A stretch of 64,000 nt of DNA from NCBI GenBank assembly GCA_948466335.1, contig CAOKAE010000002.1, forward strand, positions 92,029 through 156,028, written 5' to 3'. The first letter of the stretch is position 1. Every line of letters starts with the position of its first letter. This document shows positions 7,646 to 50,023 of the stretch, one piece after another. The notes below the pieces were generated by a model. It did no database searches, was not told the origin of the DNA, and was given only the letters and a program-made list of their open reading frames with translations. This DNA comes from an uncultured Coriobacteriia bacterium. GTDB taxonomy: Bacteria > Actinomycetota > Coriobacteriia > Coriobacteriales > QAMH01. Both the position numbers and the translations under genes were made by a program.

Positions 7646-9156
7646 TTATATCAGCTTTTTCGCCTCGTTGACCATGGCGATCAGCTCGTCCTTGCGATGA
7701 ATGCCCATCTTGCGGTAGATGCTCTTGCCGTAGCCCTTGACGGTGCTCTCGGCCACGACCAGTTCCTCGGCCACGCGCTTGACCGTGTAGCCCCGCGCCA
7801 TGAGCGAGGCGGTCTCCTGTTCGCGCTCGGTCAGGTCATATCGTTCGGCCAGCATGTCCATGGCAAGGTCGTGTCGCTCGGCTAGAGAAGGTACCTGTTT
7901 CAAGTCGTCGGGCTTTCTCTCGGCCCCTGTTCCAATTTGCCCAGAAACGCCCGCCGGTGAACGATAACCATGATGAAGAGCACGGCGCACATGCCCAAGG
8001 AGACGGCGATACCCGCGGCGATGCTCACGGGAAACAGAAAGTCAGCGGGAGTCAAATTGAGGTGGGCGAGCACGGCCGGGATAATCGAGGACGTGATGCC
8101 GGACGCAAGACCGTACACCACAAGGAAGAACGCCGAACACGAGAGCGGGGAGTGCCCGTTATCCAGACCCCATAAGCTTATCAACGCCATCGCATAGACG
8201 AGCAGGGCAGAGTACAGGCCCGTCACGAACGGCGAGAGCACGACGGGGGACACGAAGGCGAACAGCACCGTCGAGACCATGAAGCCGACAAGGCCGATAC
8301 TCCCTATGGCCAAGGTACATTCCGCCGTTGACTTTGAGCGTAGGGCAATCAGTAGGAAGAGCACTCCGATTCCGACGGAGACCAGGTAGGCATAGATCGT
8401 CCTGGGATGGGGGACGTAGTTGACCCCGCCATGGGCCCATCTGCTGCGCAGGAAGGCACCGCAGAAGATCTCGGCAAACACCAATGCCATGGCGCATATC
8501 TGCACTTTGCGAAGATAGGAATCCTGAAGGAACGGCTCCAGCTCGCGCGTTGCGGAGATGACCTGATCCTTGCGAAGCAGACAAAGCGCGAGGAGCGCGA
8601 GAAGCGGATAGAGTGCACTGAGCGTCGACGCCCATTCGCGAGGCAGGGCATCGAGCAGCCCGAAGACGTGACTTGCCACGAAGGCACCCATTACCACCGT
8701 CGCGATCTTGTCGCGGGCGATTGCGGCGAGCACGCGAAACCATCCGGTGACAAGAACAGCAAAACCCATGCAAAGGACAACAATGCTCACGACATAGAAG
8801 GCATCGGTCGTCACGCCAAGGGTTCTTCCCGCGCTATTGGCAAGCACGCCTGCCATGGCAAGGATGCCTCCAGCGACGTACGGGACAAGCCGCCCTTCTG
8901 TCTCCAAGACCCTACGGGGTTTTCTGCCGCGGCATAGCGAGATGACCGCCATCACGCACCCGAGGAGGATGAGGGCGGCATCGTATACGACGCGCAACTC
9001 GGAAAAGCTCGACGTGATCCCGACGGTGAGAGACCCGAAAAACGGCGCCCGGAACATGGCGCAAAGCGCCCCCAGGCCCACAAGGCACAGAATCGCTTTC
9101 TTGTTTCCCCCCGACACGCCGACGACCCCCTCCTGGCCGGTCGTGCATAAAGACAA
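7646..9156 (-). pseudogene. LuxR-family regulator (N-terminal ~10-TM domain plus C-terminal GerE/LuxR HTH) split by a frameshift
   Basis: The 418-aa polytopic ORF (7900..9156) and the 114-aa ORF carrying the HTH LTEREQETASLMARGYTVKRVAEELVVAESTVKGYGKSIYRKMG (7646..7990) overlap by 91 nt in different frames. Adding one nucleotide would fuse them into a protein of about 495 aa. The likely true start is GTG 9117, which has GGAGGGGG upstream. Confidence 0.6.
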
Positions 9157-10305: not shown

Positions 10306-11150
10306 CATACGAGCGCGGACAATATGACGATGGATTCGAGCGCGAGAGGCGCCCCCGTCGCGATGTTCCCGAACGGAGCGAACGCCGTACTGGCAGCGGA
10401 TCGAATCGTTACTCCCGTTCGTCGGAACGCTACGCCCGTCACGCCTCGGCGCAACGCGACGAAAGGCGTCCCGGCAGGTCAGAAGGCCGCCCGAATCGTC
10501 AACGCCGCGACGACGCGCCCCGCGCGCGCCAACGCGACGAGCAGGGCTCTCGTCATGATTCCCCACGCCCCAGCCAACGTCCGAGTTCACGCACCCGACA
10601 GCGTGATGACATGCGCAACGAGAGGCGCGATCATGACACCATGCGCCCGCGTGACACGCGCTCGAGCCGACGGGGCTACGATGACGCACGAGATGAACAT
10701 CGCCGCGACAGGCACCCAAATCGGCAACGCGAGGGACGCGCCGAGCAGCAACGCGACTCCCGCAATGGGCAACATGCCATCGCACGGGCCGGCCAACGCA
10801 ACATCGCCCAGGCAAATCAGTACAGCAGGGACCGCTACGTAAGCCAGCCCGACCAGCAGTTTGGCGCATCCGCGAACCGGCAGGGCTACGACAAGGGCCG
10901 ACGCGTCAAGCCCGTCGACCCGCGCATGATCCTCGGGCTCGGCGTCGTTGCCGTCATCCTGCTTGCCGTCATCATCATCCGCTTCGTCGCCTTTGGTGGC
11001 ATCGCAAGCGAATACGGTGCCGCCAAGGCCGCCATCGACCAGCAACAAGCACAGCTCACCGAGCTTCAGACCTCAAACGGCGAGCTTCAGGCCGAGATGG
11101 ACTCCATGCAGGGCCTCATCGAGCGCTACAACAACTCGGGCAAGAAGTGA
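10302..11150 (+). CDS. Hypothetical bitopic protein: ~190-aa Arg/Asp/Glu/Gln-rich disordered N-terminus, one TM, short C-terminal coiled coil (DivIC/FtsB-like architecture)
   Basis: An ATGA overlap with the upstream deacetylase gene suggests translational coupling. TM segment ILGLGVVAVILLAVIIIRFVAF. C-terminal heptad-like segment AAIDQQQAQLTELQTSNGELQAEMDSMQGLI. Confidence 0.65.
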   Translation: MTYERGQYDDGFERERRPRRDVPERSERRTGSGSNRYSRSSERYARHASAQRDERRPGRSEGRPNRQRRDDAPRARQRDEQGSRHDSPRPSQRPSSRTRQRDDMRNERRDHDTMRPRDTRSSRRGYDDARDEHRRDRHPNRQREGRAEQQRDSRNGQHAIARAGQRNIAQANQYSRDRYVSQPDQQFGASANRQGYDKGRRVKPVDPRMILGLGVVAVILLAVIIIRFVAFGGIASEYGAAKAAIDQQQAQLTELQTSNGELQAEMDSMQGLIERYNNSGKK

Positions 11151-14071: not shown

Positions 14072-14407
14072 CTAGTCGCGGTAGTTGCCCGCGGGATCGA
14101 CCTTCCTGCGCAGGGAAAGCTCGTCGGAGTGGAGAATGACGTAGCGCATGCCCTTGAGCGTGACGATGAGGTTCACGACCTCGTGCGAGCCGGCGCCGCC
14201 ATGGTTGTACAGCTGATACGTGAGAACCTCACGGTCGATCATGGGCTGATAGATGGGAGAGCCATCCACCTTCTCGCGCAGCAGAATGGTTGGCTGTCGG
14301 CCGAGCTCTTCCTGGCGCAGCGCGATGTTGTACAGGATGTCCTCCTGCTCCTCGGTCAGACGACCCATTTCCTCGATCTCAGCGATGATCTCTGCTTCAG
14401 TTGACAT
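14072..14407 (-). CDS. Hypothetical protein (111 aa)
   Basis: Starts at ATG 14407 (MSTEAEII) with SD AGGAGG 5 nt upstream, and TATACT upstream of that. No motif recognised. Confidence 0.6.
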   Translation of the reverse strand: MSTEAEIIAEIEEMGRLTEEQEDILYNIALRQEELGRQPTILLREKVDGSPIYQPMIDREVLTYQLYNHGGAGSHEVVNLIVTLKGMRYVILHSDELSLRRKVDPAGNYRD

Positions 14408-14470
14408 GTATGTCCTCCTAGAATTGGCGCAATGTCCGTAGTATAGCGTGACAGCGCCCATGAATACTGA

Positions 14471-31174: not shown

Positions 31175-32158
31175 CTAACGCCCACTCGAAAGAAGCCGTC
31201 GATAGGCCTCGAGACGTTCGGGCGCGATGGCGTCCCTCACTCCACAGCCCGGCTCGTCACCGTGCGTGCAATCGCGGAAGCGACAGCCGAGGGCCGCCTG
31301 GGCGATGTCCTCGAAGGCAAGCTTGAGACTCGCCTCCATGTCGAGAATCTGCAAGGTGCGCAGACCGGGAGCGTCAATGACGAGGCCGCCGCCCGGAAGC
31401 TCGATCATGCGCCGCGCGACCGTCGTATGCCGCCCCTTGTCGTCGGATGCTCGCACGTCACCGGTCGCCAGGGCCTGCTCGCCCAGGAGCGCGTTGACGA
31501 GCGACGACTTGCCGACGCCGCTTTCGCCCAGCAGCAATCCCGTCGTGAACGGCGAGAACACTCCGCGCAGCCTGTCGATGGACGCGCTGTCATCGACCGA
31601 GACGACGAAGAGGGGGACGTCAGGCGCGATGCGTCCGATGCGCTCGCACGTCGCTTCGATGACCGCGTCATCGACCATATCGCCCTTCGTGAGCACGAAG
31701 ACCGGCGCGGCCTTGCATCCCGCGACGGCGACCATCTGCCGCACGAGCAGCCCCTCGTCGATTCCGTCACCCGTGAGCGACTGGCAGATGAGCACGATGT
31801 CGACGTTGGCGGCCAGCACCTGCCGGCGCGGCTGACGTTCGCGCCCGATGCGCTTGACGCGCATGATTTCGTTGCGACGCGGCAAGACACACTCGATGAC
31901 GGCCTTCTCGTGATGGCGCGGCTGATGCAGCGCCACCCAGTCGCCCACGGCCACGATGCTGTCATCGCTCTTCTTGATGGATGTCGCAAGCTCGGCGCGC
32001 TCGGTGGCACGAGGCGTACACACGAGCGGATAGCCGCGGTCGAGCGATATGACGCAGCCCGGGTCGCAGGGCTTTCCCTGACGCTCCAACTTGGCGTTGG
32101 CCTTCTCGAACGCCTCACGGGTCGACGTGCGGTAGGCAAGGTGGTCGAAAGACGTCAA
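31175..32158 (-). CDS. rsgA: Ribosome small-subunit-dependent GTPase A
   Basis: G-motifs VFVLTKGD and LLGESGVGKSSLVNAL. Zn knuckle CRFRDCTHGDEPGC. The proposed TTG start at 32158 forms a TTGA overlap with the upstream stop; the start is uncertain. Confidence 0.85.
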   Translation of the reverse strand: MTSFDHLAYRTSTREAFEKANAKLERQGKPCDPGCVISLDRGYPLVCTPRATERAELATSIKKSDDSIVAVGDWVALHQPRHHEKAVIECVLPRRNEIMRVKRIGRERQPRRQVLAANVDIVLICQSLTGDGIDEGLLVRQMVAVAGCKAAPVFVLTKGDMVDDAVIEATCERIGRIAPDVPLFVVSVDDSASIDRLRGVFSPFTTGLLLGESGVGKSSLVNALLGEQALATGDVRASDDKGRHTTVARRMIELPGGGLVIDAPGLRTLQILDMEASLKLAFEDIAQAALGCRFRDCTHGDEPGCGVRDAIAPERLEAYRRLLSSGR

Positions 32159-32793
32159 GACTGTGCCCTTCTCTGGAGATAGCGCCTGGCCAGCAGGTAT
32201 AGCGTGAGCAGCAGCCCCGCCACAACGCAGAGCGCGAACGCGGCCTCGAGGCGTCCGGGGACGACCATGTGGGTCACGGGACCGCCGTTGTCGGTGACCT
32301 CGGCGGCAGACGCGTGCACGTCGAGCTCTCCCTCGTGTTCCGGGCAGGCGATGTGATAGGTGCCGGTTATCTTGAGCGACGTGCCCGTCTCGTGATAGTC
32401 GCCCACGTGCTGAATGAGCTTGGCGAGGTCGTCGGGCATGTACACGCTGATGACCGCATTCGAGGTGCCGCTGATGTTGGCCCACTTGTAGCCCTCGCCC
32501 GCGTTCACGATGTCTCCCACCGCCTCGCCCGTGAAGCTCACCTCGCTGCCGTTGAGCGCGCGGTTCGTGGACACCAGGACGCCCACGCGCGTCTCGATGA
32601 CGACGTTTTCCTCGTCGGTCAGGGAATTGCCGAGCTTGTCGAGGGATTCGAAGCGATCGGAAAGGGAGCCGATCTCGAGCTTGGCGCCATTGGCGTTCGA
32701 GACGTCCGATGGCGCGGCAAAGGCGGCCGACACCCCGCATGCAAGCGAGATGACCAGGGCGAAAAGGAAGCCGAATGTCACCCGTCTGCTCAT
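32155..32793 (-). CDS. Extracytoplasmic protein with signal peptide and C-terminal TM anchor; homologous to the C-terminal extension of the 731-aa TrkH paralog
   Basis: ATG 32793 forms an ATGA overlap with the trkH stop. Signal peptide FLFALVISLACGVSAAFA. Shares FTGEAVG, VYM and TG.YH.AC..H.GEL.VHA..(A/V)EV with residues ~560-690 of the 34528..36723 product. C-terminal TM FALCVVAGLLLTLYLL. Confidence 0.75.
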   Translation of the reverse strand: MSRRVTFGFLFALVISLACGVSAAFAAPSDVSNANGAKLEIGSLSDRFESLDKLGNSLTDEENVVIETRVGVLVSTNRALNGSEVSFTGEAVGDIVNAGEGYKWANISGTSNAVISVYMPDDLAKLIQHVGDYHETGTSLKITGTYHIACPEHEGELDVHASAAEVTDNGGPVTHMVVPGRLEAAFALCVVAGLLLTLYLLARRYLQRRAQS

Positions 32794-34322
32794 TTCTTCC
32801 TGCGCATCCACTTCGAACGATGACGCGGGACGAGGAAGGCGAGCATCTCGACGACCATCGCCAGGATCGCGATGAACTCGAGACGGCCGAGCCACATCCC
32901 GAAGATGTAGATGATCTCAAGGCCGTTGGGCATGCCGGGCGCGGCGACGCCCAGCGAAAGCCCCGTGTTGGACGCGGCCGAGACGGAATCGAATATGGCA
33001 GGCAGCGCCTCGTAGCCGTAGGCGATGCCGGCGATGGCCCCGACGGCGTACGTGACCATGTAGAGCAGGAAGATGATCATCGCCGAGGAGACGAGCTCCG
33101 GGGTGAGCCGGTGCCGGCCCTTCTGGAAGTAGAAGGTGCGCGGACGGGCGCGATCGGGCGCAAGCGCCTCGCGCACGGCCTGCACCACGGAGCGTGCGAT
33201 GATCCCGATGCGCAGGGCCTTGATGCCACCGGATGCCGAGGAGGAAGACCCGCATATGGTCATGGAGAGAATGATGACGAAGAGCGCGCCCGAACCCATG
33301 GCGAAGAGGATCTGCCCGCCTTGGAGCGTCGAGAAGCCGAGGTTGAAGGCGCCAGAGAGCACCTCGAACAACCCGCGTCGCACAACTGCACCGGTCGTGG
33401 TGAAGTACGAGCCCGCCAGGGCGAAGGCCATGAGCGCCGCGAGCGCAGTGACCCAGACGAAGATCGTCCGGATCTCGATGTCCTTGAAGAAGTTGCGGAA
33501 CACGCCCTTCCAGATGTCGCCGTAGAGCACGAAGTTAATGCAGCCAAAGGCAGCGAGGACGAGCGCGAACACCTCGAGAGGCCAGCTATGAAACGCGATG
33601 ATTCCCGACGTGGTGCTCGTCATGCCGCCCGTCGAGAACGAGGCCGCCGTCACGAGGAAACCGTTGATCGCCGCGCGCAGGGGCTCGATGCCGGCGACGA
33701 GGAGTGGAATAACGCAGACGACCGTGCCCACGACAACGATGACCGCGGCGAGCTTGAGGATGAACTGCGAGGTCTGCTTGATGCCGGGCATGACCTGGCC
33801 CATGCGCGCCTCGGCATGGTAGAGCGACGCCGCGGCCGACCCCGTGCCAAAGACGCCAAGCGCGAGCGCGATGACGACGACACCGACGCCGCCGATGAGA
33901 TGCATGACGCAGCGCCAGATGGAAAGCGAGAGCGCCATGTGGTCAACATCGACGCAAAGGGACATGCCCGTCGTGGTGAACGCCGACACCGACTCGAAGA
34001 ACGCGTCGAGATATCCGTCGTAATGACCGGACATCCAAAGCGGCAACGCACCGAAGACGGACAGAACCACCCAGCACAGACCGGTAATGACGAGAGACTG
34101 GCGCCAATCGAGCGTGGCGAATTCCACCTTCGAGAAGAGCAGGACGCTTCCCACGATGCCCGTGATGCCGATGGAGAGCATGAAGTCGACCGACGTGGAA
34201 TATTCGGCAAGGCAAAGCGACGTGATGAAGGGAGGGATCATGGCAACCGCGACGAGCAGGATGAGCACGCCGAGGTAGTGGCCGATGATACGCCAGTCCT
34301 CCAGATGCAGCCGAGTAATCAA
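32790..34322 (-). CDS. trkH: TrkH/KtrB-family cation (K+) transporter
   Basis: 510 aa, polytopic. Family segments SAFTTTG, SFSTGG and SGGIKALRIGI. Confidence 0.88.
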   Translation of the reverse strand: MITRLHLEDWRIIGHYLGVLILLVAVAMIPPFITSLCLAEYSTSVDFMLSIGITGIVGSVLLFSKVEFATLDWRQSLVITGLCWVVLSVFGALPLWMSGHYDGYLDAFFESVSAFTTTGMSLCVDVDHMALSLSIWRCVMHLIGGVGVVVIALALGVFGTGSAAASLYHAEARMGQVMPGIKQTSQFILKLAAVIVVVGTVVCVIPLLVAGIEPLRAAINGFLVTAASFSTGGMTSTTSGIIAFHSWPLEVFALVLAAFGCINFVLYGDIWKGVFRNFFKDIEIRTIFVWVTALAALMAFALAGSYFTTTGAVVRRGLFEVLSGAFNLGFSTLQGGQILFAMGSGALFVIILSMTICGSSSSASGGIKALRIGIIARSVVQAVREALAPDRARPRTFYFQKGRHRLTPELVSSAMIIFLLYMVTYAVGAIAGIAYGYEALPAIFDSVSAASNTGLSLGVAAPGMPNGLEIIYIFGMWLGRLEFIAILAMVVEMLAFLVPRHRSKWMRRKK

Positions 34323-34331
34323 GACGCCCGC

Positions 34332-34469
34332 CTACATCACGATGAAGTGCACGACGACCGTGACGAGCGCGAGGAAGGCGAGGAAGACGCAAATCGACGC
34401 GAGCACGACGAGCATGCCGACAACCGGGCTCCCCTTCTTCTGCGCGCGTCTCTGAAATACCGCTTTCAT
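34332..34469 (-). CDS. Small single-TM protein (45 aa)
   Basis: ATG 34469 with a strong SD, GAGGAGGAGAGG. Sequence MKAVFQRRAQKKGSPVVGMLVVLASICVFLAFLALVTVVVHFIVM. It lies between the two trkH paralogs. Confidence 0.55.
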   Translation of the reverse strand: MKAVFQRRAQKKGSPVVGMLVVLASICVFLAFLALVTVVVHFIVM

Positions 34470-34527
34470 GCCTCTCCTCCTCGTCGTGCCTATTATAGCC
34501 ATGAACGAATCGTCAAATCGACGCTCG

Positions 34528-36723
34528 TCAGCTTCTCTCCCACCTGAACAGGTTCCTGAGCCGGACGCGTCCATGGAGCGACTGGCGCGCGACCGTCATG
34601 GCGAGTCCGACAACGATGAGAACGATGCCGACGACGTACGCTGCCGGATTGACCGGATTGGTCCAGCTTTCGCCCTGGGCGTTGACCTCGACCTGCTCCG
34701 CATGCACCTCGAGCTCGCCGTTATGGTCGGCGCAGGCCAGGTGATAGACGCCTTGCACGGTGATCATGTCGCCCGTCTGCTCGTAGGTCGCGTAATGCGC
34801 GATCTGCCCGGCAAGCTCGGTGCTCATGTAGACGCCGACCATGGCGCCGGCGTTTTTCACGTTGACCCACACGTGACTCTCGTCGGCGATGATGGGCGAC
34901 CCGACCGCCTCTCCCGTGAAGACTACGTCGCTGCCATCCTGACGCTTGCCGGCGGAGAGCAGGGCGCGCACGTCCACAGAGCTGTAGGGCGAGGGATTGC
35001 TCAGCGCCTCGACATCCTGCGCGGGAACCTGAGCGCCGCCCGGGACGGCAACTGCCACGGGTGCGCCCGTGCCAAGGCAGCCGAGGGCGAGGACGAGAAA
35101 GCCCGTCACGACGAAGGTCCTTCCCCGTCGTCCGGACTCCTGGCGCTTGCGACGGCGCCAGGCCGTCCCGCCGAAGTTCTTGCGCTTGAGCGTCCTCAGG
35201 TCGCGCGACCTGTCGTTGCTGAAGAGGTTCTCGGGATGCAGCGAGATGAGGATGCCGACGATGGCGCCGATGAGCGCGATGAACTCGACGCGACCGGCCC
35301 ACATGAGCAACAGGGCCACGATCTTGAGGCCGAAGGGAAGGCCCGCCTGCGTGATCTCGGTCGTCATGCCGCAGTTGGTCACGTAGCTGATCGACTCGAA
35401 GACCGAGTTGAGGGCGTCGTTGCCAAATGCGATGAAGGCCATGGAACCCAGGGCGGCCGTGCCGAGGTACAGGATGAAGACCGTCATCGCGATCATCGCG
35501 TCCTCGGAGTTCAGCGTCTGCGAGCCAAAGTGCTCGTACTTGATGCGCACGCGCGCGTTATCGGGAGCCAGGCGCACGAGAATCGAGTACTTGATCCAGC
35601 GCAGGACCTGCAAGATGCGCACGAACTTGATACCGCCGCCCGAGGAGTAGGCGCACGCGCCGAAGAGTATCGCGACAATGACGAGAATGACCACGCCATC
35701 CGTTATGACGCCACCGATCTGCTCGGGATACACCGCCTGCATGCCGCAGGTCGTCGCGGCCGAGACGACGGTGGTCAATCCGTTTTGCATGAGGCCGCCC
35801 AGACTCGTGAAGAGCCCCTCGCGCGTCATGATCCAGGTGACGAAGGCGACGAGGGCCACGATCCACAGCGCGTACACGCGCAGCTCCGCGTTGCGCCTGA
35901 TGTGCCCGAAGCGATGGGCGCGCGCGTAGGCGTACACGGCAAAGCTGATTGCGCCGGCAATCATGAGGGCGCTGAGCACGAACTGTAGGGGAAGCGAGTG
36001 ATAGTAGATGAGGTCAGAGGTATGGGGCACGAAGCCGCCCGTGCCCACGGCGGTCAGGGCGAGCCAGAAACCGTTCATGACCGCATCGACGGGATGCAGC
36101 CCCAGAAACAGGCAGATAACCGTCGCGGCCACAGCACCGACAAGCGCGAAGCTCCCGTACACGCGCAAGACCGAGAGGCAGGTCTCGCTGATGCGCGCCC
36201 GCGTGCGCTCTCCGTCGCGACGCTCGCTCATCATGAAGACCCGGGAACCCTCGCCGAAGAACCCCGAGTACATGGCGATGACGACAACGGTCAGCGCCCC
36301 GGCAAACGACATGATCACACGCCAGGTGATCTGGGAATAGCTCAGAGAATCGACGTCGGGCACGAGCGTCACACCCGTCGTGGTGAGCGCCGAGACGGAA
36401 TCGAAGAGGGCATCGAACCACGAATCGAAGGAACCGGACAGAAGCAGCGGCACCGCGCACACGATGCCGATGGCGATCCAGCCAAAGCCCACGAGCAGCA
36501 GCGCGCGTCGCCGGTCCAATCCCCGCGCCTTGAAGAAGCGCAACGCCGACCCGATGGTCAGGCACACGCCTATCCCGGCAACGAACGCGCCGAGCTGGCG
36601 AAATTCCCCGAACACGAGCGCGATGACGGCGGGCACGCACATGGCCGCGCCCGTCATCAGAATGAGCACGCCAAGGTAATGACCGACGGTCGTGATATCG
36701 GACCAGTGAAAGCGGGGCAACAT
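34528..36723 (-). CDS. trkH: TrkH/KtrB-family transporter fused to a C-terminal extracytoplasmic domain plus extra TM
   Basis: 731 aa. The TrkH core covers about the first 490 aa (GGIKFVRILQ). It is followed by a basic linker, a TM, a ~150-aa domain homologous to the 32155..32793 product, and a final TM (AAYVVGIVLIVVGLAM). Confidence 0.85.
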   Translation of the reverse strand: MLPRFHWSDITTVGHYLGVLILMTGAAMCVPAVIALVFGEFRQLGAFVAGIGVCLTIGSALRFFKARGLDRRRALLLVGFGWIAIGIVCAVPLLLSGSFDSWFDALFDSVSALTTTGVTLVPDVDSLSYSQITWRVIMSFAGALTVVVIAMYSGFFGEGSRVFMMSERRDGERTRARISETCLSVLRVYGSFALVGAVAATVICLFLGLHPVDAVMNGFWLALTAVGTGGFVPHTSDLIYYHSLPLQFVLSALMIAGAISFAVYAYARAHRFGHIRRNAELRVYALWIVALVAFVTWIMTREGLFTSLGGLMQNGLTTVVSAATTCGMQAVYPEQIGGVITDGVVILVIVAILFGACAYSSGGGIKFVRILQVLRWIKYSILVRLAPDNARVRIKYEHFGSQTLNSEDAMIAMTVFILYLGTAALGSMAFIAFGNDALNSVFESISYVTNCGMTTEITQAGLPFGLKIVALLLMWAGRVEFIALIGAIVGILISLHPENLFSNDRSRDLRTLKRKNFGGTAWRRRKRQESGRRGRTFVVTGFLVLALGCLGTGAPVAVAVPGGAQVPAQDVEALSNPSPYSSVDVRALLSAGKRQDGSDVVFTGEAVGSPIIADESHVWVNVKNAGAMVGVYMSTELAGQIAHYATYEQTGDMITVQGVYHLACADHNGELEVHAEQVEVNAQGESWTNPVNPAAYVVGIVLIVVGLAMTVARQSLHGRVRLRNLFRWERS

Positions 36724-36774
36724 AATATGCGGATTATAGCCGTTTGCGCCGACGGCGATTCAGAAGATGACGCC

Positions 36775-39168
36775 CTACTCGCCTGCGAGGGAATCGAGAT
36801 AGGCGCGTTCGCGATTGAGCGCGATGTTGAAGAGCACGTTGAAGAGGACGGTGATGAACAAGGCAGCGACGAGGGCGAGGAGCATCATGTTGCCCGTCAG
36901 GGGCACAAGCATGAAGACGGGACCGAAGACGAAGATGCCGAGCACGAGGCCCGCGAGCACGACGACGAGTAGCGCCACGCGTATGTAGTTGAAGGGAATC
37001 GACAGGCGTATGACGAGATTGACGCCCGACACGCAGGTGAGGATGACGCAGAGCGTCGAGAACTGGTCTTGCGACAGGCCCGTGGCGAAGCTGAAGATGA
37101 CGGCGATGATGACCGAGGTCACGACGCAGATAGCACCGGGTATGGCACGCGTGATGACGTTGCGCAGAAACTCGCCGCGTATGAGGTCGCGGTTGGGCTC
37201 GAGCGCAAGGACGAAGGAGGGAATGCCCACGGTGAACGCATCGATGAGCGTGAGCTGGATGGTCACGAAGGGGTAGTTGTAGCTCACGATGAAGATGAAC
37301 ATGAGGGACATGACGACAGAGAATATCGTCTTGACCAGGAACAGCGAGCCAGAACGCTGCAGGTTGTTGATGGAGCGACGGCCCTCGGCGACCACGGGGG
37401 GCATCGAGGCGAAGTCGTCGTCGAGGAGCACGAGCTGGGCGACGCTTCGCGCGGCATCCGAACCGGTGCCCATGGCCACGGAGCAGTCGGCCGCATGCAA
37501 GGCGAGCACGTCGTTCACCCCGTCACCGGTCATGGCGACGGTATGGCCCTGGTCTTGCAGCGCCACGACGAGCTGCTTCTTCTGCGCGGGGCTCACGCGA
37601 CCGAAGACACGACAGGTGCGGGCCGCCTCGCGCAGCTCCTCCTCGGTGGTGACGGTACTCATGTCAATGCACTTGTCGGCATCGGGAACACCCACGGAGG
37701 CAGCGATGTTGGAGACCGTCTCGACCGCGTCACCGCTGATGATGTTGATGCGCACGCCCTGCTGCTTGAAGTAGTCGAGCGTCTGGGCCGCCGTGGGACG
37801 CACGCGGTCGCGAATGAAGATGAGCGCCAGTGGCTCGACCGGCCCGACGATGGCGTCTTCCTTGTCGAAGTCGGCGACCTTGGCGAGCACGAGCACGCGG
37901 CGTACGCCCGCAAGGCGCTCGATGGTGCTCAGGACCTCGGGAAGCTCGTCGCTTCCCTTCAAGACGAACTCGGCCGCGCCCATGGCGTAGTTGCCGGCCT
38001 CGCTTCCATAGCACACGCCCGAATACTTGCGCTCGGACGAGAATGGCACGTAGCGCGTCGTACCCTGGACGGCCTTGGGAGCATCGGGGCGCTCCTCGAG
38101 GCCGGTAAGGTATGCCTTGATGGCCTTGGCGGTCTCGTTATCGTCCTTCGAGAGCGAATCGAGCGCCACGAGCGCATGGAGGGCATCGTCGTAGGGCACC
38201 CCGTCGAAGGGAATGACCTCGTCGACATCCATCTCGCCTGTCGTGATGGTGCCCGTCTTGTCGAGGCACACGACGTCGACGCGGGCAAGCGTCTCGACGC
38301 AGTAAAGCTCCTGGACGAGCACCTTGTGTTGCGCCAGGCGGATGACGCTCACGGCAAGCACGGCCGACGTGAGCAAGATGAGCCCCTGCGGAATCATGCC
38401 GACGAGCGCGGCCGAGGTGTGCAGGATCGCCGAGTCTATGGTGCCGCCGCCGAGCCAGCACTCCTTGATGACGAGCGCGGCACCCAGAGGCACGATGAGC
38501 ACGGTGACGAACTTGATGATCTTGCGCAGCGACTCCATGATGTCGGAACGGACCTTGCGGTAGACCTTGGCCTCGTTGTTGATCTTGGTCGCGTAGTTGT
38601 CCGCGCCCACGGCGGTGACGCGGGCCATGCAGGAACCGGAGCTTATGAAGCTGCCCGAATACAGGTCGTCGCCGACCTTCTTGGGCACGAGGTCGGCCTC
38701 GCCGGTGAGCAGACTTTCGTTGGCACTGCACGACCCCTCGATGACCTGGCAGTCCGAGGGAACCTGATCGCCGCGCTCAAGCATGATGACGTCATCGAGC
38801 ACGATCTGGTCGAGCATGATGTTCGATCGCCTGCCATCGCGGATGACATGGGCCTTGGACGAGGTGATGACCGAAAGTCGGTCGATAGTGAGCTTGGAGC
38901 GCACCTCCTGGTAGATGCCGATAGCGATGTTGCAGATGATGATCGCCATGAACAGGAGGTTACGATAGGAGCCGGTCCAGAAGATGGCGATGGCGAGGAT
39001 GATGTTGACGAGGTTGAAGAGGGTGCAGATGTTGTCGCGCACGATGCGTGGGATGCTGCGCGTGTGCACGTCGGCGTTCTCGTTGACCTTGCCGGCGGCG
39101 ATGCGCTCGTTGACCTCTGCCGTGCTGAGCCCTTGTATGGGTTTCGTGTCCTGCTGCGTCTCTTCCAT
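36775..39168 (-). CDS. Cation-translocating P-type ATPase
   Basis: DKTGTIT phosphorylation motif, the MTGDGVNDVLAL hinge, and TGEADLV. Starts at ATG 39168 (MEETQQD...GLSTAEVNERI); upstream starts would run into the clpB terminator. Confidence 0.9.
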   Translation of the reverse strand: MEETQQDTKPIQGLSTAEVNERIAAGKVNENADVHTRSIPRIVRDNICTLFNLVNIILAIAIFWTGSYRNLLFMAIIICNIAIGIYQEVRSKLTIDRLSVITSSKAHVIRDGRRSNIMLDQIVLDDVIMLERGDQVPSDCQVIEGSCSANESLLTGEADLVPKKVGDDLYSGSFISSGSCMARVTAVGADNYATKINNEAKVYRKVRSDIMESLRKIIKFVTVLIVPLGAALVIKECWLGGGTIDSAILHTSAALVGMIPQGLILLTSAVLAVSVIRLAQHKVLVQELYCVETLARVDVVCLDKTGTITTGEMDVDEVIPFDGVPYDDALHALVALDSLSKDDNETAKAIKAYLTGLEERPDAPKAVQGTTRYVPFSSERKYSGVCYGSEAGNYAMGAAEFVLKGSDELPEVLSTIERLAGVRRVLVLAKVADFDKEDAIVGPVEPLALIFIRDRVRPTAAQTLDYFKQQGVRINIISGDAVETVSNIAASVGVPDADKCIDMSTVTTEEELREAARTCRVFGRVSPAQKKQLVVALQDQGHTVAMTGDGVNDVLALHAADCSVAMGTGSDAARSVAQLVLLDDDFASMPPVVAEGRRSINNLQRSGSLFLVKTIFSVVMSLMFIFIVSYNYPFVTIQLTLIDAFTVGIPSFVLALEPNRDLIRGEFLRNVITRAIPGAICVVTSVIIAVIFSFATGLSQDQFSTLCVILTCVSGVNLVIRLSIPFNYIRVALLVVVLAGLVLGIFVFGPVFMLVPLTGNMMLLALVAALFITVLFNVLFNIALNRERAYLDSLAGE

Positions 39169-39204
39169 GGGCTCGATAATAGCAATAAACACCACCACCC
39201 CATG

Positions 39205-39237
39205 CAAAAAGGGGACCAGTCATGAAAACTGGTCCCC
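39205..39237 (-). terminator. Rho-independent terminator of clpB
   Basis: On the minus strand, GGGGACCAGT-N7-ACTGGTCCCC is followed by TTTTTGC. Confidence 0.85.
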
Positions 39238-39270: not shown

Positions 39271-41862
<2,592 letters not shown>

Positions 41863-41964
41863 TTCAATTCCTCCAATATTCAGTTATATGTGCATGTCGT
41901 GACGGTCCTCGGGAAGGGCCGCACGACGGTGGTTTTCGCTTTTGCGTGACACGAGCCCGTCGCG

Positions 41965-42363
41965 TCAGATGCCATCGAAGCCTTCGCTGAGCAGCCTCGA
42001 GTGATCCGGCTTGCTCATGAGCGTCCTGATGGTCTGGCGCATCTCGAGCTCGTGCATCGACTCGTGCAGGCGCTCGATTTCCTCGCGAAGCCTGTCGGCC
42101 TCGGCCTGGATCTCGCGCATGCGCTCCCTCTGGTCGAGAATGCGCATGACGCCCGCGAGGTTGATGCCCTCGTCCGTGAGCCGGCCGATGAGCTCCAGGC
42201 GGTCGACGTCGGCCTGCGAGTACATGCGCGTGTTGCCGCTCGTACGCTGGGGTGACACGAGGCCCTTTGCCTCGTAGATGCGCAGCGTCTGCGGATGAAG
42301 CCCGGCAAGATCGGCGGCAACGCTAATCATGTAGAGCGGTTTGTTCCTGTCTGTCTGTGCCAT
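41965..42363 (-). CDS. hspR: MerR-family heat-shock repressor HspR
   Basis: YMISVAADLAGLHPQTLRIYEAKGLVSPQRTSGNTRMYS. It occupies the position after dnaJ, as in actinobacterial dnaK operons. Confidence 0.9.
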   Translation of the reverse strand: MAQTDRNKPLYMISVAADLAGLHPQTLRIYEAKGLVSPQRTSGNTRMYSQADVDRLELIGRLTDEGINLAGVMRILDQRERMREIQAEADRLREEIERLHESMHELEMRQTIRTLMSKPDHSRLLSEGFDGI

Positions 42364-42378
42364 GACGCGCTCCTGTTC

Positions 42379-43356
42379 CTATGCCTTGACGGCCTTCATC
42401 TGCTCGTTCATCGCGCTGCGCAGCGTATCCGGCGAGGGAGACGCCGCACGAAAGTCCTCGATGGCCTTCTTCTGCTCGGCGTTGAGGTTCTTGGGCATCT
42501 CGACGACCACCTTGATGCGCAGGTCGCCCGTGCCCTTCTTGCCCTTCACGTCCTTGGCTCCCTTGCCCTTGACGCGCAGGACCTTGCCGTCTTGCGTGCC
42601 CGCGGGGACGCGCAGCTTGACGCGCGTGCCGTCCGGGGCGGGAACGACGATGCTCGCGCCGAGAATCGCCTCGTCGATGCTGACCGGAAGGTCCATCACG
42701 ACGTCGGCCTTCTCGCGCCGATAGACGGGGTGCTCGGCGATCTTCGTGACGATGAGCAGGTCGCCCCGCTCGCCACCGTTGGTGCCGAACTCGCCCTTGC
42801 CGCGGAAACGCAGCCGGCCGCCATCGACGGCGCCCTCGGGTACCTTGACCGTGACCGTCTCGGTGTCACCCGTGCTGGGGATCCTGATCGAGACCTTCTT
42901 CGTCGTGCCCTTGAAGGCCTCGTCGAAGGTGAGCTCGATGGAGGTCTGGAGGTCCTGGCCCTTGTGCGCCCGGTTGACGTTGAAGTCCCAGTCGCTGCCA
43001 AACGCCCCGTCACCGCCACGGATGTTGCTGAAGATGTCGGCCCAGTCGAACCCCGCACCGTCACCTCCCGAGGTGTAGGTGTAGGTACGACCGCCACCGC
43101 CGGGCCATCCCTGGCCCGCACCACCCCAGGCTCCCGCCTGGTCGGCGAAGTTGCCCACGGTGCCGTAGGTGTCGTACTGCTCCTTCTTCTCGGGATCGGA
43201 GAGGACCTCGTAGGCCTCGTTTATCTCCTTGAAGGTCTCCTCGTCGCCACCCGCATCGGGATGATGCTTCTGGGCGAGCTTGCGAAACGCCTTCTTTATC
43301 TCATCGGCGGAAGCGGACTTCTTCACGCCGAGTATGTCGTAATAGTTCTTTGACAT
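42379..43356 (-). CDS. dnaJ: DnaJ-class co-chaperone without zinc-finger domain (CbpA/type II-like)
   Basis: J-domain YYDILGV...HHPD, followed by a G-rich linker. No CxxCxGxG repeats. Confidence 0.9.
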
Positions 43357-43415
43357 GTGTCTTCCACCTTCCTTTCTACAAGAAGAAACGCGCCCTTGCG
43401 AACGCGTTTCCCCGA

Positions 43416-44048
43416 CTATTGCTCGTTAGCTCCGTCTGGCTCCCGTGCGGGACCTCCGGTGCTCGTCACGACCATCGCAGGACGTATGACGCGCTCGCCC
43501 ATCCTGTAGCCCTGCTGGAATACCTTGACGACCGTCTCCTCGGGAACGCTTGCGTCCTCCTCGGTGCCGACCGCCTGATGCTGCATCGCATCGAAGGGCT
43601 CTCCCAGCGCGGCAATCTGCGTGACCTTGTGCTTCTCCAGAATCTGCAGGAACTTGCTCTGGATCGCGTCGACGCCATCGGTCAGGCTGCCGCCCTCGCC
43701 CGTCTCCCTCGCGTGCTTGATGGCACGCTCGAGGTCGTCGAGCAGGGGAAGCAGGTCCATGACGAGGCTCTCCGAAGCGCGCACGCGCTCGGACTCGCGC
43801 TCTGCCTGCGTGCGCTTGCGGTAGTTGTCCCACTCCGCCTGCAGCCTCGCATAGCGATCGCGCAACTCGGTCACCTCGGCCGTGATGGCCTCGAAGAGGT
43901 TGGGCGTGTCCTCCTGGACCTCGCCTTGCTCCTCGACGACCTCGGCCTCGATGGCCTCGTCGACTTTCTCGTCTACGGGCTCAGCGCCCTCGGGGCTGCC
44001 AGCGGCAGCCCCTTCGAGCGTATCGTCCCTGTGCTCTGCGGCGGTCAT
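43416..44048 (-). CDS. grpE: Nucleotide exchange factor GrpE
   Basis: 210 aa. Contains [16 protein letters not shown]...[14 protein letters not shown]. Confidence 0.93.
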
Positions 44049-44050
44049 GA

Positions 44051-46006
<1,956 letters not shown>

Positions 46007-48590: not shown

Positions 48591-49718
48591 CTAGCGCAGG
48601 TCGACGCTGAGGGTGCGAATCACGCTGTTGTCGCCCAGGGTGACGCCCGTCGTGTGATCGTAGGTCTCGGTCACCTTCCACGTGGAGGGGATGCCCTCGA
48701 TGTTGGTGAGGCCGGTAAACTCGGCGACCTCTTGCGCGGATGTGTCGCGCGAAAGCACCGCCTGGGGATTCTCGATGATGCTGAGCTGTGCGGATTCGAC
48801 GGCGGCGGCATCAAGCCCGATGCCTGCGAGAATCGACGATGCGACCACCTTCGAGGCGGCGAGCTCGTCGAACTTGGCATCGGCGACACCAAAGGCGTCG
48901 AGGTCGAAGGCCGTGAAGATGTAGTCGATGTTGCCCTCGGCGTTGAGACCGAAGGTGATGCTCGCGAGCGTCTCGCCATTGGAGCCGACGAGCCAGCCGT
49001 TGCGCGTCCTCACGACGGTGGGAAGCGTCGCGTCCGAGGCGGCTACGGCCTCGGCATCGAGCGTGATCGTGTTGCCGCTCGCCTCGACGGCGGCCTCGGG
49101 GGTCATGCCGAAGTACGTGATGAGGTCGGGAATGCGCTCGGCCTCGATTGCCTGGAACTGCGTGGCGTTCGTGCCGGCCGAGGACGTCTGCAGGACGTCG
49201 GAATCCGGCTGCTTGACGTCGGGCGGCGTCGAGTTGCGCCAGATGAACAGGCCGATGATGGCAACGAGGATCAGCAGGATGATGATGAAGAAAACGAGCA
49301 AGTTGCGCAGGCGACGCCTGCTGCGCATCGCGCGCTCGGTGGAGAACTCGTCATCTTCGTCATCGACGTACTCGATGGCCTCCTGCTCGGTGATGTTGAT
49401 GGATTCGGACAGCTCGTCGAGGTCGGCGCTCTCGGTGAGACGGTCGCCCTCGTTGCGCACCACGACATCGTCCACGTTGACGACCTCGTCTGCGGAAACC
49501 TCGCCCGGCTCGAAGTCGGCCGCGGCGGCAGCCGCGCGCATCCTGTAGGAGCTATCGGACTTGATGATGTCGTCGAGCATGGACTCGGCCGCCTCGCCAA
49601 AGTCGACCGTGATCTCCTCCTTGGGAGCATCCTGGGCGGATTGGCCGTCGTTGAAGTCCTCTTCGGCGAAGAGATGGACCTCGACCTCGTTTTGCTCGTC
49701 GTTCTCGCGCTTATCCAT
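48591..49718 (-). CDS. Hypothetical bitopic membrane protein (acidic N-terminus, one TM, ~220-aa external domain)
   Basis: 375 aa. TM segment LLVFFIIILLILVAIIGLFIW. No motif recognised. It follows the GT2 synthase and the 98-aa gene with 8- and 28-nt gaps. Confidence 0.7.
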   Translation of the reverse strand: MDKRENDEQNEVEVHLFAEEDFNDGQSAQDAPKEEITVDFGEAAESMLDDIIKSDSSYRMRAAAAAADFEPGEVSADEVVNVDDVVVRNEGDRLTESADLDELSESINITEQEAIEYVDDEDDEFSTERAMRSRRRLRNLLVFFIIILLILVAIIGLFIWRNSTPPDVKQPDSDVLQTSSAGTNATQFQAIEAERIPDLITYFGMTPEAAVEASGNTITLDAEAVAASDATLPTVVRTRNGWLVGSNGETLASITFGLNAEGNIDYIFTAFDLDAFGVADAKFDELAASKVVASSILAGIGLDAAAVESAQLSIIENPQAVLSRDTSAQEVAEFTGLTNIEGIPSTWKVTETYDHTTGVTLGDNSVIRTLSVDLR

Positions 49719-49726
49719 ATGTGCCC

Positions 49727-50023
49727 CTATATGAAGTGAATCCAGCTGTTGACAATATACAGTATTGCGACAATGACGACGACGACCGCGATGACAATCA
49801 GCGCCTTGTGGCCAGCGCCCATGGGCTGGGTCGTGTCGAGACCGTGAAACTCCTCTTCCTGCTCGGCGGTCATGTCGCCCTGGTCGGATGCGGGCGCGGG
49901 CTGAGCCGTCGCGGGTGCCTGGCCTTCGGGGGAGACGGATTCTCGTTCGGCGTCTTGCGCAGCGCGCTCCTGTTCCTGCTGTGCGCGGCGTTCCACGTCT
50001 TCGATGGAGCTAAGCTTGCTCAT
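49727..50023 (-). CDS. Hypothetical tail-anchored protein (98 aa)
   Basis: Acidic, low-complexity N-terminus and a C-terminal TM, ALIVIAVVVVIVAILYIV. Confidence 0.6.
   Translation of the reverse strand: MSKLSSIEDVERRAQQEQERAAQDAERESVSPEGQAPATAQPAPASDQGDMTAEQEEEFHGLDTTQPMGAGHKALIVIAVVVVIVAILYIVNSWIHFI

Follow-up and report, generated by a model that had tools for sequence, protein, structure and literature searches.

The window analysed here, that is, the whole stretch of 64,000 nucleotides (nt) from a contig of an uncultured Coriobacteriia bacterium, contains a gene cluster (31175-39207) in which every gene lies on the minus strand and the genes are packed closely. Two paralogs of the K+ transporter subunit TrkH, named here TrkH-L and TrkH-S, are encoded in it together with a small hydrophobic peptide and a protein of 212 amino acids (aa), and the subject of this work is the system that these four products may form. 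In the order of transcription, their genes and parts are the following (TM, transmembrane; pLDDT, predicted local distance difference test score).

34528..36723, minus strand: TrkH-L gene, 731 aa, ATG start, 58 nt to the peptide gene
35239..36723, minus strand: TrkH-L channel core, residues 1-495 (Pfam PF02386, E 9e-22; pLDDT mostly 80-95)
34993..35238, minus strand: basic cytoplasmic linker and connector helix TM11 of TrkH-L, residues 496-577 (helix 534-552), from the sequence
34654..34992, minus strand: OB-fold domain fused to TrkH-L, residues 578-690 (E605, W619, C664, H667, E670, H674)
34528..34653, minus strand: C-terminal anchor helix TM12 and basic tail of TrkH-L, residues 691-731 (helix 693-716, pLDDT 92-94)
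34332..34469, minus strand: gene of the 45-aa single-pass hydrophobic peptide MKAVFQRRAQKKGSPVVGMLVVLASICVFLAFLALVTVVVHFIVM, 9 nt to TrkH-S
32790..34322, minus strand: TrkH-S gene, 510 aa, TTG start, overlapping the 212-aa gene by 4 nt
32155..32793, minus strand: gene of the 212-aa protein, overlapping the RsgA gene by 4 nt (TTGA)
32716..32793, minus strand: signal peptide or N-terminal anchor of the 212-aa protein, residues 1-26, from the sequence
32284..32598, minus strand: OB-fold domain of the 212-aa protein, residues ~66-170 (E90, W104, C150, H153, E156, D158, H160)
32188..32244, minus strand: C-terminal TM anchor of the 212-aa protein, residues 184-202, then a basic tail, from the sequence

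A preliminary description of this DNA, made from its letters alone, had reported two TrkH paralogs of 731 and 510 aa, and the corresponding open reading frames (ORFs) were found as claimed; both products match Pfam PF02386, TrkH-L with 77.7 bits and TrkH-S with 109 bits (E 3e-31) against a cut-off of 27. The further claim that one domain is shared by the TrkH-L tail and the 212-aa protein is borne out by BLASTP (42% identity over 110 aa, E 1e-26). Among the conserved motifs that had been listed, FTGEAVG and VYM are identical in both copies, but the leading T of the long motif is a Q in the fused copy and has to be dropped; the long motif common to both domains reads G.YH(I/L)AC..H.GEL(D/E)VHA. 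The coupling of the 510-aa TrkH to the 212-aa gene was likewise recovered, the TGA of TrkH-S being overlapped by the ATG of the 212-aa gene (aagaaATGAgc), and so was the very strong Shine-Dalgarno sequence before the 45-aa gene, whose start is preceded by GAGGAGGAGAGGC with the ribosome-binding motif GGAGGAG. Scans of the cluster for promoters and terminators gave no useful information.

The shared domain and the TrkH proteins linked to it

Scans of the window proteins against Pfam and NCBIfam returned no family for either the domain or the peptide, in agreement with the earlier view that the domain is uncharacterised. Among ten other family members, the best matches all stayed below the cut-offs: NF033674 (stress_OB_fold) with 21.7 against 35 bits in one member (E 1.7e-4), DUF4131 with 13.7 against 31.6 bits, and tRNA_anti_2 with 12.8 against 27 bits (E 0.14, one member). 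The structure was more informative. An AlphaFold model of the domain, for which alignment A1, with 71 segments of the domain taken from both split and fused proteins, served as input, reached a pLDDT of 92.3 and a predicted TM-score (pTM) of 0.82, and displays five long strands with a short helix between strands 3 and 4. A Foldseek comparison with the PDB, a check that the preliminary description had left to be made, supplied a fold that it had not named, as all 50 matches listed are OB-folds with a probability of 1.00 (best matches with E 3e-5 and weaker, to 1e-3; TM-scores of 0.5-0.6 on the query; 10-20% identity). They include the N-terminal anticodon-binding domains of AspRS, AsnRS and LysRS, as well as RPA32, XseA and CST subunits. 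On the predicted structure, the shared domain is an OB-fold. It shares the five-strand barrel, and the helix inserted between strands 3 and 4, with the OB domains of the tRNA_anti clan (anticodon OB domain of class IIb aminoacyl-tRNA synthetases, RPA32, N-terminal domain of XseA); these, however, are cytoplasmic nucleic-acid binders, whereas the domain described here is predicted to be extracytoplasmic and is flanked by membrane segments. With the YgiW/YdeI BOF stress proteins (NF033674), which are soluble and periplasmic and have no C-terminal anchor, it shares a secreted OB-fold domain and the single weak match below cut-off, but the protein described here (hereafter the OB protein) differs by its C-terminal anchor, its C..H..E.D.H motif and its linkage with TrkH.

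The extracytoplasmic placement follows in both forms from their membrane segments. The N-terminus of the 212-aa protein reads plausibly as a signal peptide (RR, then a hydrophobic core and AFA|AP), and in an alignment of 22 homologues this N-terminus is variable and hydrophobic and ends in AxA; the predicted order is signal peptide, OB domain outside, C-terminal TM helix and basic tail inside. Anchoring as a lipoprotein was considered and rejected, since the lipobox-like string S-L-A-C is not conserved beyond close relatives. The close relatives keep [LF]-[AST]-C in the signal peptide, which corresponds here to Cys19 (window 32737-32739). Another cysteine, C189 in the C-terminal TM helix, is also invariant in close relatives and likewise not conserved in the wider family.

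In TrkH-L, the extension had been described as a basic linker, a TM helix, a soluble domain and a final TM helix, and this architecture is seen in the AlphaFold model of the full-length protein as helix 534-552, beta domain 599-682 and helix 693-716. The linker itself, RSRDLRTLKRKNFGGTAWRRRKRQESGRRGR, is followed by a hydrophobic stretch. Because the C-terminus of TrkH is cytoplasmic (structures 3PJZ and 4J9U), this topology together with the positive-inside rule places the OB domain outside, and the predicted order is basic linker inside, TM11, OB domain outside, TM12 and basic tail inside. The model, computed from an alignment of 49 sequences, has a pLDDT of 79.9 and a pTM of 0.81, with 85-94 for the OB domain and TM12 and 36-55 for the linker and TM11. 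TM12 is equivalent to the C-terminal TM helix of the split protein; as it scores 85-94 in the model and TM11 only about 50, we infer that TM12 may be a helix packing on TrkH and that TM11 may be a mere connector, standing where the split form has its signal peptide. Across the 49 long TrkHs, R594, W619, G651, C664, H667 and H674 are invariant. An inter-subunit disulfide with TrkH was rejected, as the TrkH-L core has no invariant cysteine. A full-length search found about 65 clusters of long TrkHs (700-927 aa, 37-97% identity), all with the domain and, where labelled, all from uncultured Coriobacteriales.

The most conserved positions of the domain include a group of cysteine, histidine and acidic residues. 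In 140 further representatives of the family, and in A1 numbering, E32 is conserved in 99%, G35 in 98%, W46 in 99%, G79 in 100%, C92 in 96%, H95 in 95%, D100 in 95% and H102 in 96%; in the 212-aa protein, E32, W46, C92, H95, D100 and H102 correspond to E90, W104, C150, H153, D158 and H160. Five representatives with D at A1 position 92 also lack both histidines: in these site-less variants (P0203, P0239, P0240, P0243 and P0254), Cys92, His95 and His102 are replaced together, as in DAEEAGELDVRAY. Since they are lost together in five representatives, the cysteine and the two histidines act as one unit. The combination of a single invariant cysteine, two histidines and acidic residues, outside the cytoplasm and with the named lineages being anaerobes, suggests from the sequences a metal or redox-sensitive site. 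The A1 profile had no significant match among PDB sequences, and its only trace there was a cyanobacterial plastocyanin with a non-significant E of 0.17, which aligns kWVN and G.Y..C..H.G (the type-1 copper loop) over A1 31-92, i.e., residues ~89-150 of the 212-aa protein. This trace fits the idea of a putative metal site, although it is not significant and the fold differs. Identity with cupredoxins, which combine their own fold with an upstream His and a C-x2-H-x4-M loop, was rejected, given that the predicted fold is OB and not cupredoxin and that this trace was all the profile gave.

The TrkH partners of this domain are themselves distinctive. TrkH-S aligns end to end with TrkH of Vibrio parahaemolyticus (4J9U, E 2e-27), and in an alignment with canonical TrkHs, 4J9U included, both paralogs keep the filter G of the four P-loops (TTTG, TGG, xxG, NxG) and the D3 SxxGGxK segment. 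Nevertheless, the OB-linked TrkHs, TrkH-S among them, form their own clade, with 150-670 bits to each other versus 60-130 to canonical TrkH, and have outer loops lengthened by 4-residue insertions behind the D2 and D3 filters. Both paralogs fall below the cut-off of NCBIfam TIGR00933 (139.7 and 183.3 versus 331 bits), and the equivalog NF008020 gives the window TrkHs about 100 bits against a cut-off of 866. By its Pfam match and the filter features of its sequence, the pore subunit is thus in the TrkH family and outside the curated TrkH subfamily model. In comparison with the known Trk/Ktr systems (TrkH-TrkA of V. parahaemolyticus, PDB 4J9U/3PJZ; KtrAB), the Pfam TrkH pore, the four P-loops and D3 GGxK are common, whereas the OB-linked TrkH differs in belonging to a separate clade with about 25% identity to canonical TrkH, in its D2/D3 loop insertions, and in being always trailed by an OB single-pass protein and having, as a rule, a small peptide encoded before it. 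The literature searched, the coverage of which was incomplete, contained no report of TrkH or KtrB having an OB-fold or single-pass partner.

Linkage of the OB family with TrkH and the small peptide

An exhaustive profile search retrieved 1,116 cluster representatives (clusters at 50% identity), and E was 1e-10 or lower for 966. Most family members have 160-250 aa, with a signal or anchor, the OB domain and a C-terminal TM helix, and 98 of 132 short representatives have one hydrophobic segment on either side of the domain. The named members, from Hathewaya massiliensis (Clostridia, WP_142414043.1), a Butyrivibrio metagenome-assembled genome (MAG), a Spirochaetales MAG and Coriobacteriales, are all annotated as "hypothetical protein", and the OB-linked branch of TrkH is spread over several bacterial phyla.

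A scan with the split protein over one genome per GTDB species gave 19 loci (loci are numbered L, and family representatives P), all in Coriobacteriia MAGs, and every Coriobacteriia locus with enough flanking sequence has the TrkH-L::OB fusion, the peptide, TrkH-S and the OB gene. Two of the loci, L020 (CAVCDT010000002.1, an Akkermansia muciniphila bin) and L021 (CAVAPV010000001.1, an Agathobacter rectalis bin), have the cassette of the Coriobacteriia type on contigs with 63% and 59% GC, respectively; these species labels are probably wrong or the bins contaminated. Outside this arrangement, the OB gene begins within or right at the 3' end of a TrkH gene encoding 490-520 aa in L026, L027-29, L030-31, L032, L037, L039 and L041, and such overlap or abutment is seen across about 30-71% GC in Coriobacteriales, Clostridia, Butyrivibrio and Spirochaetales.

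The linkage was also followed in an independent sample of metagenome contigs, scanned with one peptide pattern from another subgroup; 463 relatives were confirmed, and 80 of the loci were taken for closer study. The census of these loci was as follows.

TrkH ORF ends at the start of the OB gene: 68 loci
TrkH on the same strand, with the adjacency rule upset by ORF extension: 6 loci
Upstream sequence too short or OB ORF truncated (uninformative): 6 loci
Adequate upstream sequence without TrkH: 0 loci

TrkH is therefore linked, on the same strand, in 74 of 74 informative metagenome loci. The preliminary description had named, as what would speak against its reading, a known and unrelated family that accompanies TrkH in this genome only; no curated family was found for the domain, and its linkage with TrkH is general.

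The third element, the small peptide, recurs with the other two. In all Coriobacteriia loci, as well as in L026, L027, L032, L037, L039 and L041, the OB-linked TrkH is preceded at a distance of 5-12 nt by an ORF of 30-66 aa for a single-pass product; the L037 peptide is 42% identical to that of the window over 38 residues. In the metagenome loci with a complete TrkH, a homologous peptide precedes TrkH in 37 of 46, with the motif G-[IL]-x-x-E-[ILV] at the helix start. The peptide-less loci are L051, L054, L074, L075, L076, L096, L058, L064 and L083, lineages in which the peptide may have been lost, moved or fused. In six of these nine, trkA abuts trkH, with 3-6 nt between them. L041 has an extra ORF of 36 aa after the OB gene.

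Taken by their degree of fusion, these arrangements form a series: a single module of peptide, TrkH and OB; a double module that is fully split (TrkH491, OB175, peptide, TrkH520, OB196 in L037); the double module of the window type, in which the first TrkH-OB pair is fused; double modules with both pairs fused (L034, where an ORF runs from the C-terminus of TrkH-S into the OB domain, and also fragment P0166); and TrkH::OB::peptide proteins joined via a low-complexity linker (P0075, P0076, P0083-87 and P0094). The survey of fused versus split forms that had been proposed thus found split, partly fused and fully fused forms alike, and the topology is consistent in every fusion form. Both paralogs, and the peptide as well, have been fused independently. 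Read as Rosetta-stone evidence, the fusions suggest a stoichiometric complex of TrkH, OB protein and peptide. Together with the comparative linkage, they strongly back the physical partnership for which the preliminary description had argued, the contact itself being what we infer from them.

Gating ring and neighbouring genes

As the preliminary description had stated for trkA/ktrA, no TrkA_N or TrkA_C protein was detected by Pfam among the ~45 ORFs of the window, and a tblastn search of the window with an approximate KtrA query gave nothing better than E 0.8. Likewise, no trkA gene lies within ~10 kb on either side of the cassette in L001, L004, L006 and L035 of the Coriobacteriia, nor in L026, L032 and L037; Coriobacteriia and a few other high-GC lineages have no linked trkA. 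On the other hand, one or two trkA/ktrA-like genes lie directly upstream and on the same strand in 36 of the 41 metagenome loci with room for them, and Pfam annotates such genes upstream in L027, L039 and L041 (Clostridia, Butyrivibrio and Spirochaetales loci). As in known Trk/Ktr systems, trkA/ktrA-like genes thus accompany the OB-linked TrkH in most lineages, and because they coexist there with the cassette, the OB subunit is probably an addition to the cytoplasmic ring and not a substitute for it.

The cassette of the window is flanked by two further genes on the minus strand.

36775..39207, minus strand: P-type ATPase gene, 810 aa, 51 nt to TrkH-L
31175..32158, minus strand: RsgA GTPase gene, 327 aa, TTG start (Pfam PF03193, E 1e-41)

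The ATPase gene upstream had been recognised as such, and its product matches Pfam E1-E2_ATPase and Hydrolase. Its best NCBIfam matches are type IIIA, type IB and generic, of which only the generic one is above cut-off, and none is KdpB. P-type ATPases of 803-815 aa are encoded 20-53 nt upstream of TrkH-L in L004, L005, L035 and probably L006, where TrkH-L is 45-97% identical, and are absent from L001, L025, L034 and all non-Coriobacteriia loci. Such a patchy presence, in a protein that is not KdpB-like, led us to reject the ATPase as an obligatory Kdp-like pump. RsgA was rejected as a part of the system, as it lies downstream of the cassette throughout the Coriobacteriia loci and not elsewhere; in the unrelated high-GC L032 (2142-3248), it is found directly upstream of peptide-TrkH-OB. 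A GTPase of ribosome assembly is thereby a repeated neighbour of this K+ system.

A DUF4118-HisKA-HATPase_c kinase and an OmpR-type regulator, resembling KdpD/KdpE, adjoin the module in two unrelated lineages (L037:1-1890 and L039:6605-9400), which points to a possible K+-responsive control of transcription. In the 80 metagenome loci, thirteen ORFs resemble the L039 kinase. Directly upstream of the ATPase, the window contains a heat-shock cluster on the minus strand (39271-45967: DnaK, GrpE, DnaJ, a MerR/HspR-like regulator and ClpB), and this synteny is also found in L004, L034 and L035. Elsewhere in the window, five coding-like ORFs have no Pfam match (E<=0.001), all on the minus strand: 7900-9156 (418 aa), 48591-49718 (375 aa), 10587-11048 (153 aa), 14072-14461 (129 aa) and 49727-50023 (98 aa).

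A proposed complex and its alternatives

We propose that these genes encode a variant Trk/Ktr-type K+ uptake system, in which the OB protein and the peptide would be extra membrane subunits of a distinct TrkH clade, and we hold this reading to be the probable one, though with real room for doubt. The TrkH clade would provide the pore, the OB domain would stand on the outer face of the membrane with its C-terminal helix as anchor, and a single-pass peptide of 30-66 aa would complete the module. In this Coriobacteriia lineage, the module is duplicated, with the OB domain fused in the first copy (TrkH-L) and translationally coupled in the second, and one peptide gene between them; TrkH-L and TrkH-S probably form a heterodimer. 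The C-terminal helix of the OB protein would dock on TrkH, and the OB domain would lie near the outer pore mouth, at the clade-specific insertions after the D2 and D3 filters. In this position, it could behave like a beta subunit that stabilises the complex and raises its K+ affinity, as has been proposed for KdpC and KdpF in relation to the related KdpA, or, alternatively, entry could be modulated by a metal or redox signal read by the Cys-His-His cluster. The cytoplasmic TrkA/KtrA ring would still be in use where it is encoded. A bolder version, a four-part machine made of the TrkA/KtrA ring, the TrkH-clade pore, an OB lid that senses a ligand (metal or redox, through Cys-His-His(-Glu/Asp)) and gates the outer mouth, and an obligate heterodimer in Coriobacteriia, is tentative, and we rather doubt it in this complete form.

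The closest known parallel is KdpFABC. Its KdpA belongs to the SKT family and is joined by two single-pass proteins, KdpC, which is periplasmic and close to the filter, and KdpF; KdpF is a tiny, lipid-like single spanner encoded just upstream, and for KdpC an increase of K+ affinity in the manner of a beta subunit has been suggested (PMC6255902). The OB-linked systems resemble it by their SKT-superfamily pore, the tiny peptide encoded upstream, the single-pass subunit with an external domain and, in part of Coriobacteriia, a P-type ATPase gene next door. In contrast, the OB protein is anchored C-terminally and KdpC N-terminally, and the ATPase here is neither KdpB-like nor conserved with the cassette. 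The likeness of the OB protein to KdpC and of the peptide to KdpF is one of analogy, in role and in the order of the genes, and not of homology. A functional analogy may also be drawn with KCNE, Nav beta and BK beta of eukaryotic cation channels, unrelated proteins that place one TM helix on the pore protein, with or without an extracellular domain, and so tune the channel.

Several observations call for caution towards the proposed complex. The Cys/His cluster might just as well serve in catalysis or as a contact between proteins. A peptide ORF is unrecognised in 9 of the 46 metagenome loci with complete TrkH, so this subunit is not universal. The probable heterodimer is deduced from the strict co-occurrence of the two paralogs, and the OB domain is proposed to touch the pore mouth, for which the pTM argument is indirect. 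As to the Kdp parallel, neither KdpC (PF02669) nor KdpF (PF09604) gave a Pfam match at E<=1, and KdpC is absent among the 50 Foldseek matches listed.

Among the alternatives, the idea that the OB protein and the peptide are only biogenesis or stability factors, needed for the insertion or folding of TrkH, draws on the tight translational coupling through the ATGA overlap, on the high pLDDT that the anchor helix reaches in TrkH-L and on KdpF, described as a lipid-like single spanner (PMC6255902). The near-invariant solvent-type residues E, W, C, H, D and H of the soluble domain and their co-loss, however, exceed the demands on a scaffold, and permanent fusions point to a stoichiometric subunit. 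KdpF itself is often said to be needed for insertion or folding. Overall, we regard biogenesis as a rather unlikely sole function. Replacement of a missing TrkA/KtrA gating ring by the OB domain, with regulation moved outside, would agree with the lack of TrkA_N/TrkA_C in the 64-kb window and of trkA within ~10 kb of several cassettes; since OB and trkA/ktrA-like genes coexist in the 36 of 41 metagenome loci as well as in Clostridia, Butyrivibrio and Spirochaetales, and since trkA is frequently unlinked to trkH in genomes, as in Escherichia coli, we consider it unlikely.

The two remaining alternatives deny the partnership or the fusion altogether. Had the OB protein been a YgiW/YdeI-type envelope stress protein with no tie to TrkH beyond a shared operon, for which the sub-threshold NF033674 match of one member (E 1.7e-4, 21.7 versus 35 bits) could be invoked, neither the same-strand linkage in all 74 informative loci, nor the start/stop overlaps kept across genomes of 30-70% GC, nor at least three kinds of in-frame fusion would be expected, and YgiW-type proteins have no C-terminal TM anchor; this makes it very improbable. 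An assembly or annotation artefact behind the fused 731-aa gene, through a lost stop codon or a frameshift, can practically be set aside. The split TrkH491-OB175 does exist in L037, and some database entries are fragments or contain runs of N (P0034, P0037, L034), but the window ORF of 731 codons is uninterrupted, with a GC content at third codon positions of 0.86, and ~65 clusters (37-97% identity) from many independent assemblies show the same fusion and a conserved basic linker.

Most bacteria take up K+ mainly through Trk and Ktr, which are viewed as a pore regulated only from inside by a nucleotide-binding ring. What we describe appears to be a known transporter family in a new and widespread subunit composition, through which this textbook transporter would gain an outer element of control or affinity; if the sensing lid were true, no earlier case of a subunit that senses the cell exterior would be known among bacterial Trk/Ktr transporters. 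A further parallel would be with KdpC and KdpF, whose roles are themselves still unexplained. Moreover, Hathewaya massiliensis is a cultured carrier that makes experiments feasible, and more than 1,000 clusters of "hypothetical proteins" from anaerobes of gut, rumen, sediment and digesters gain a name and a testable function.

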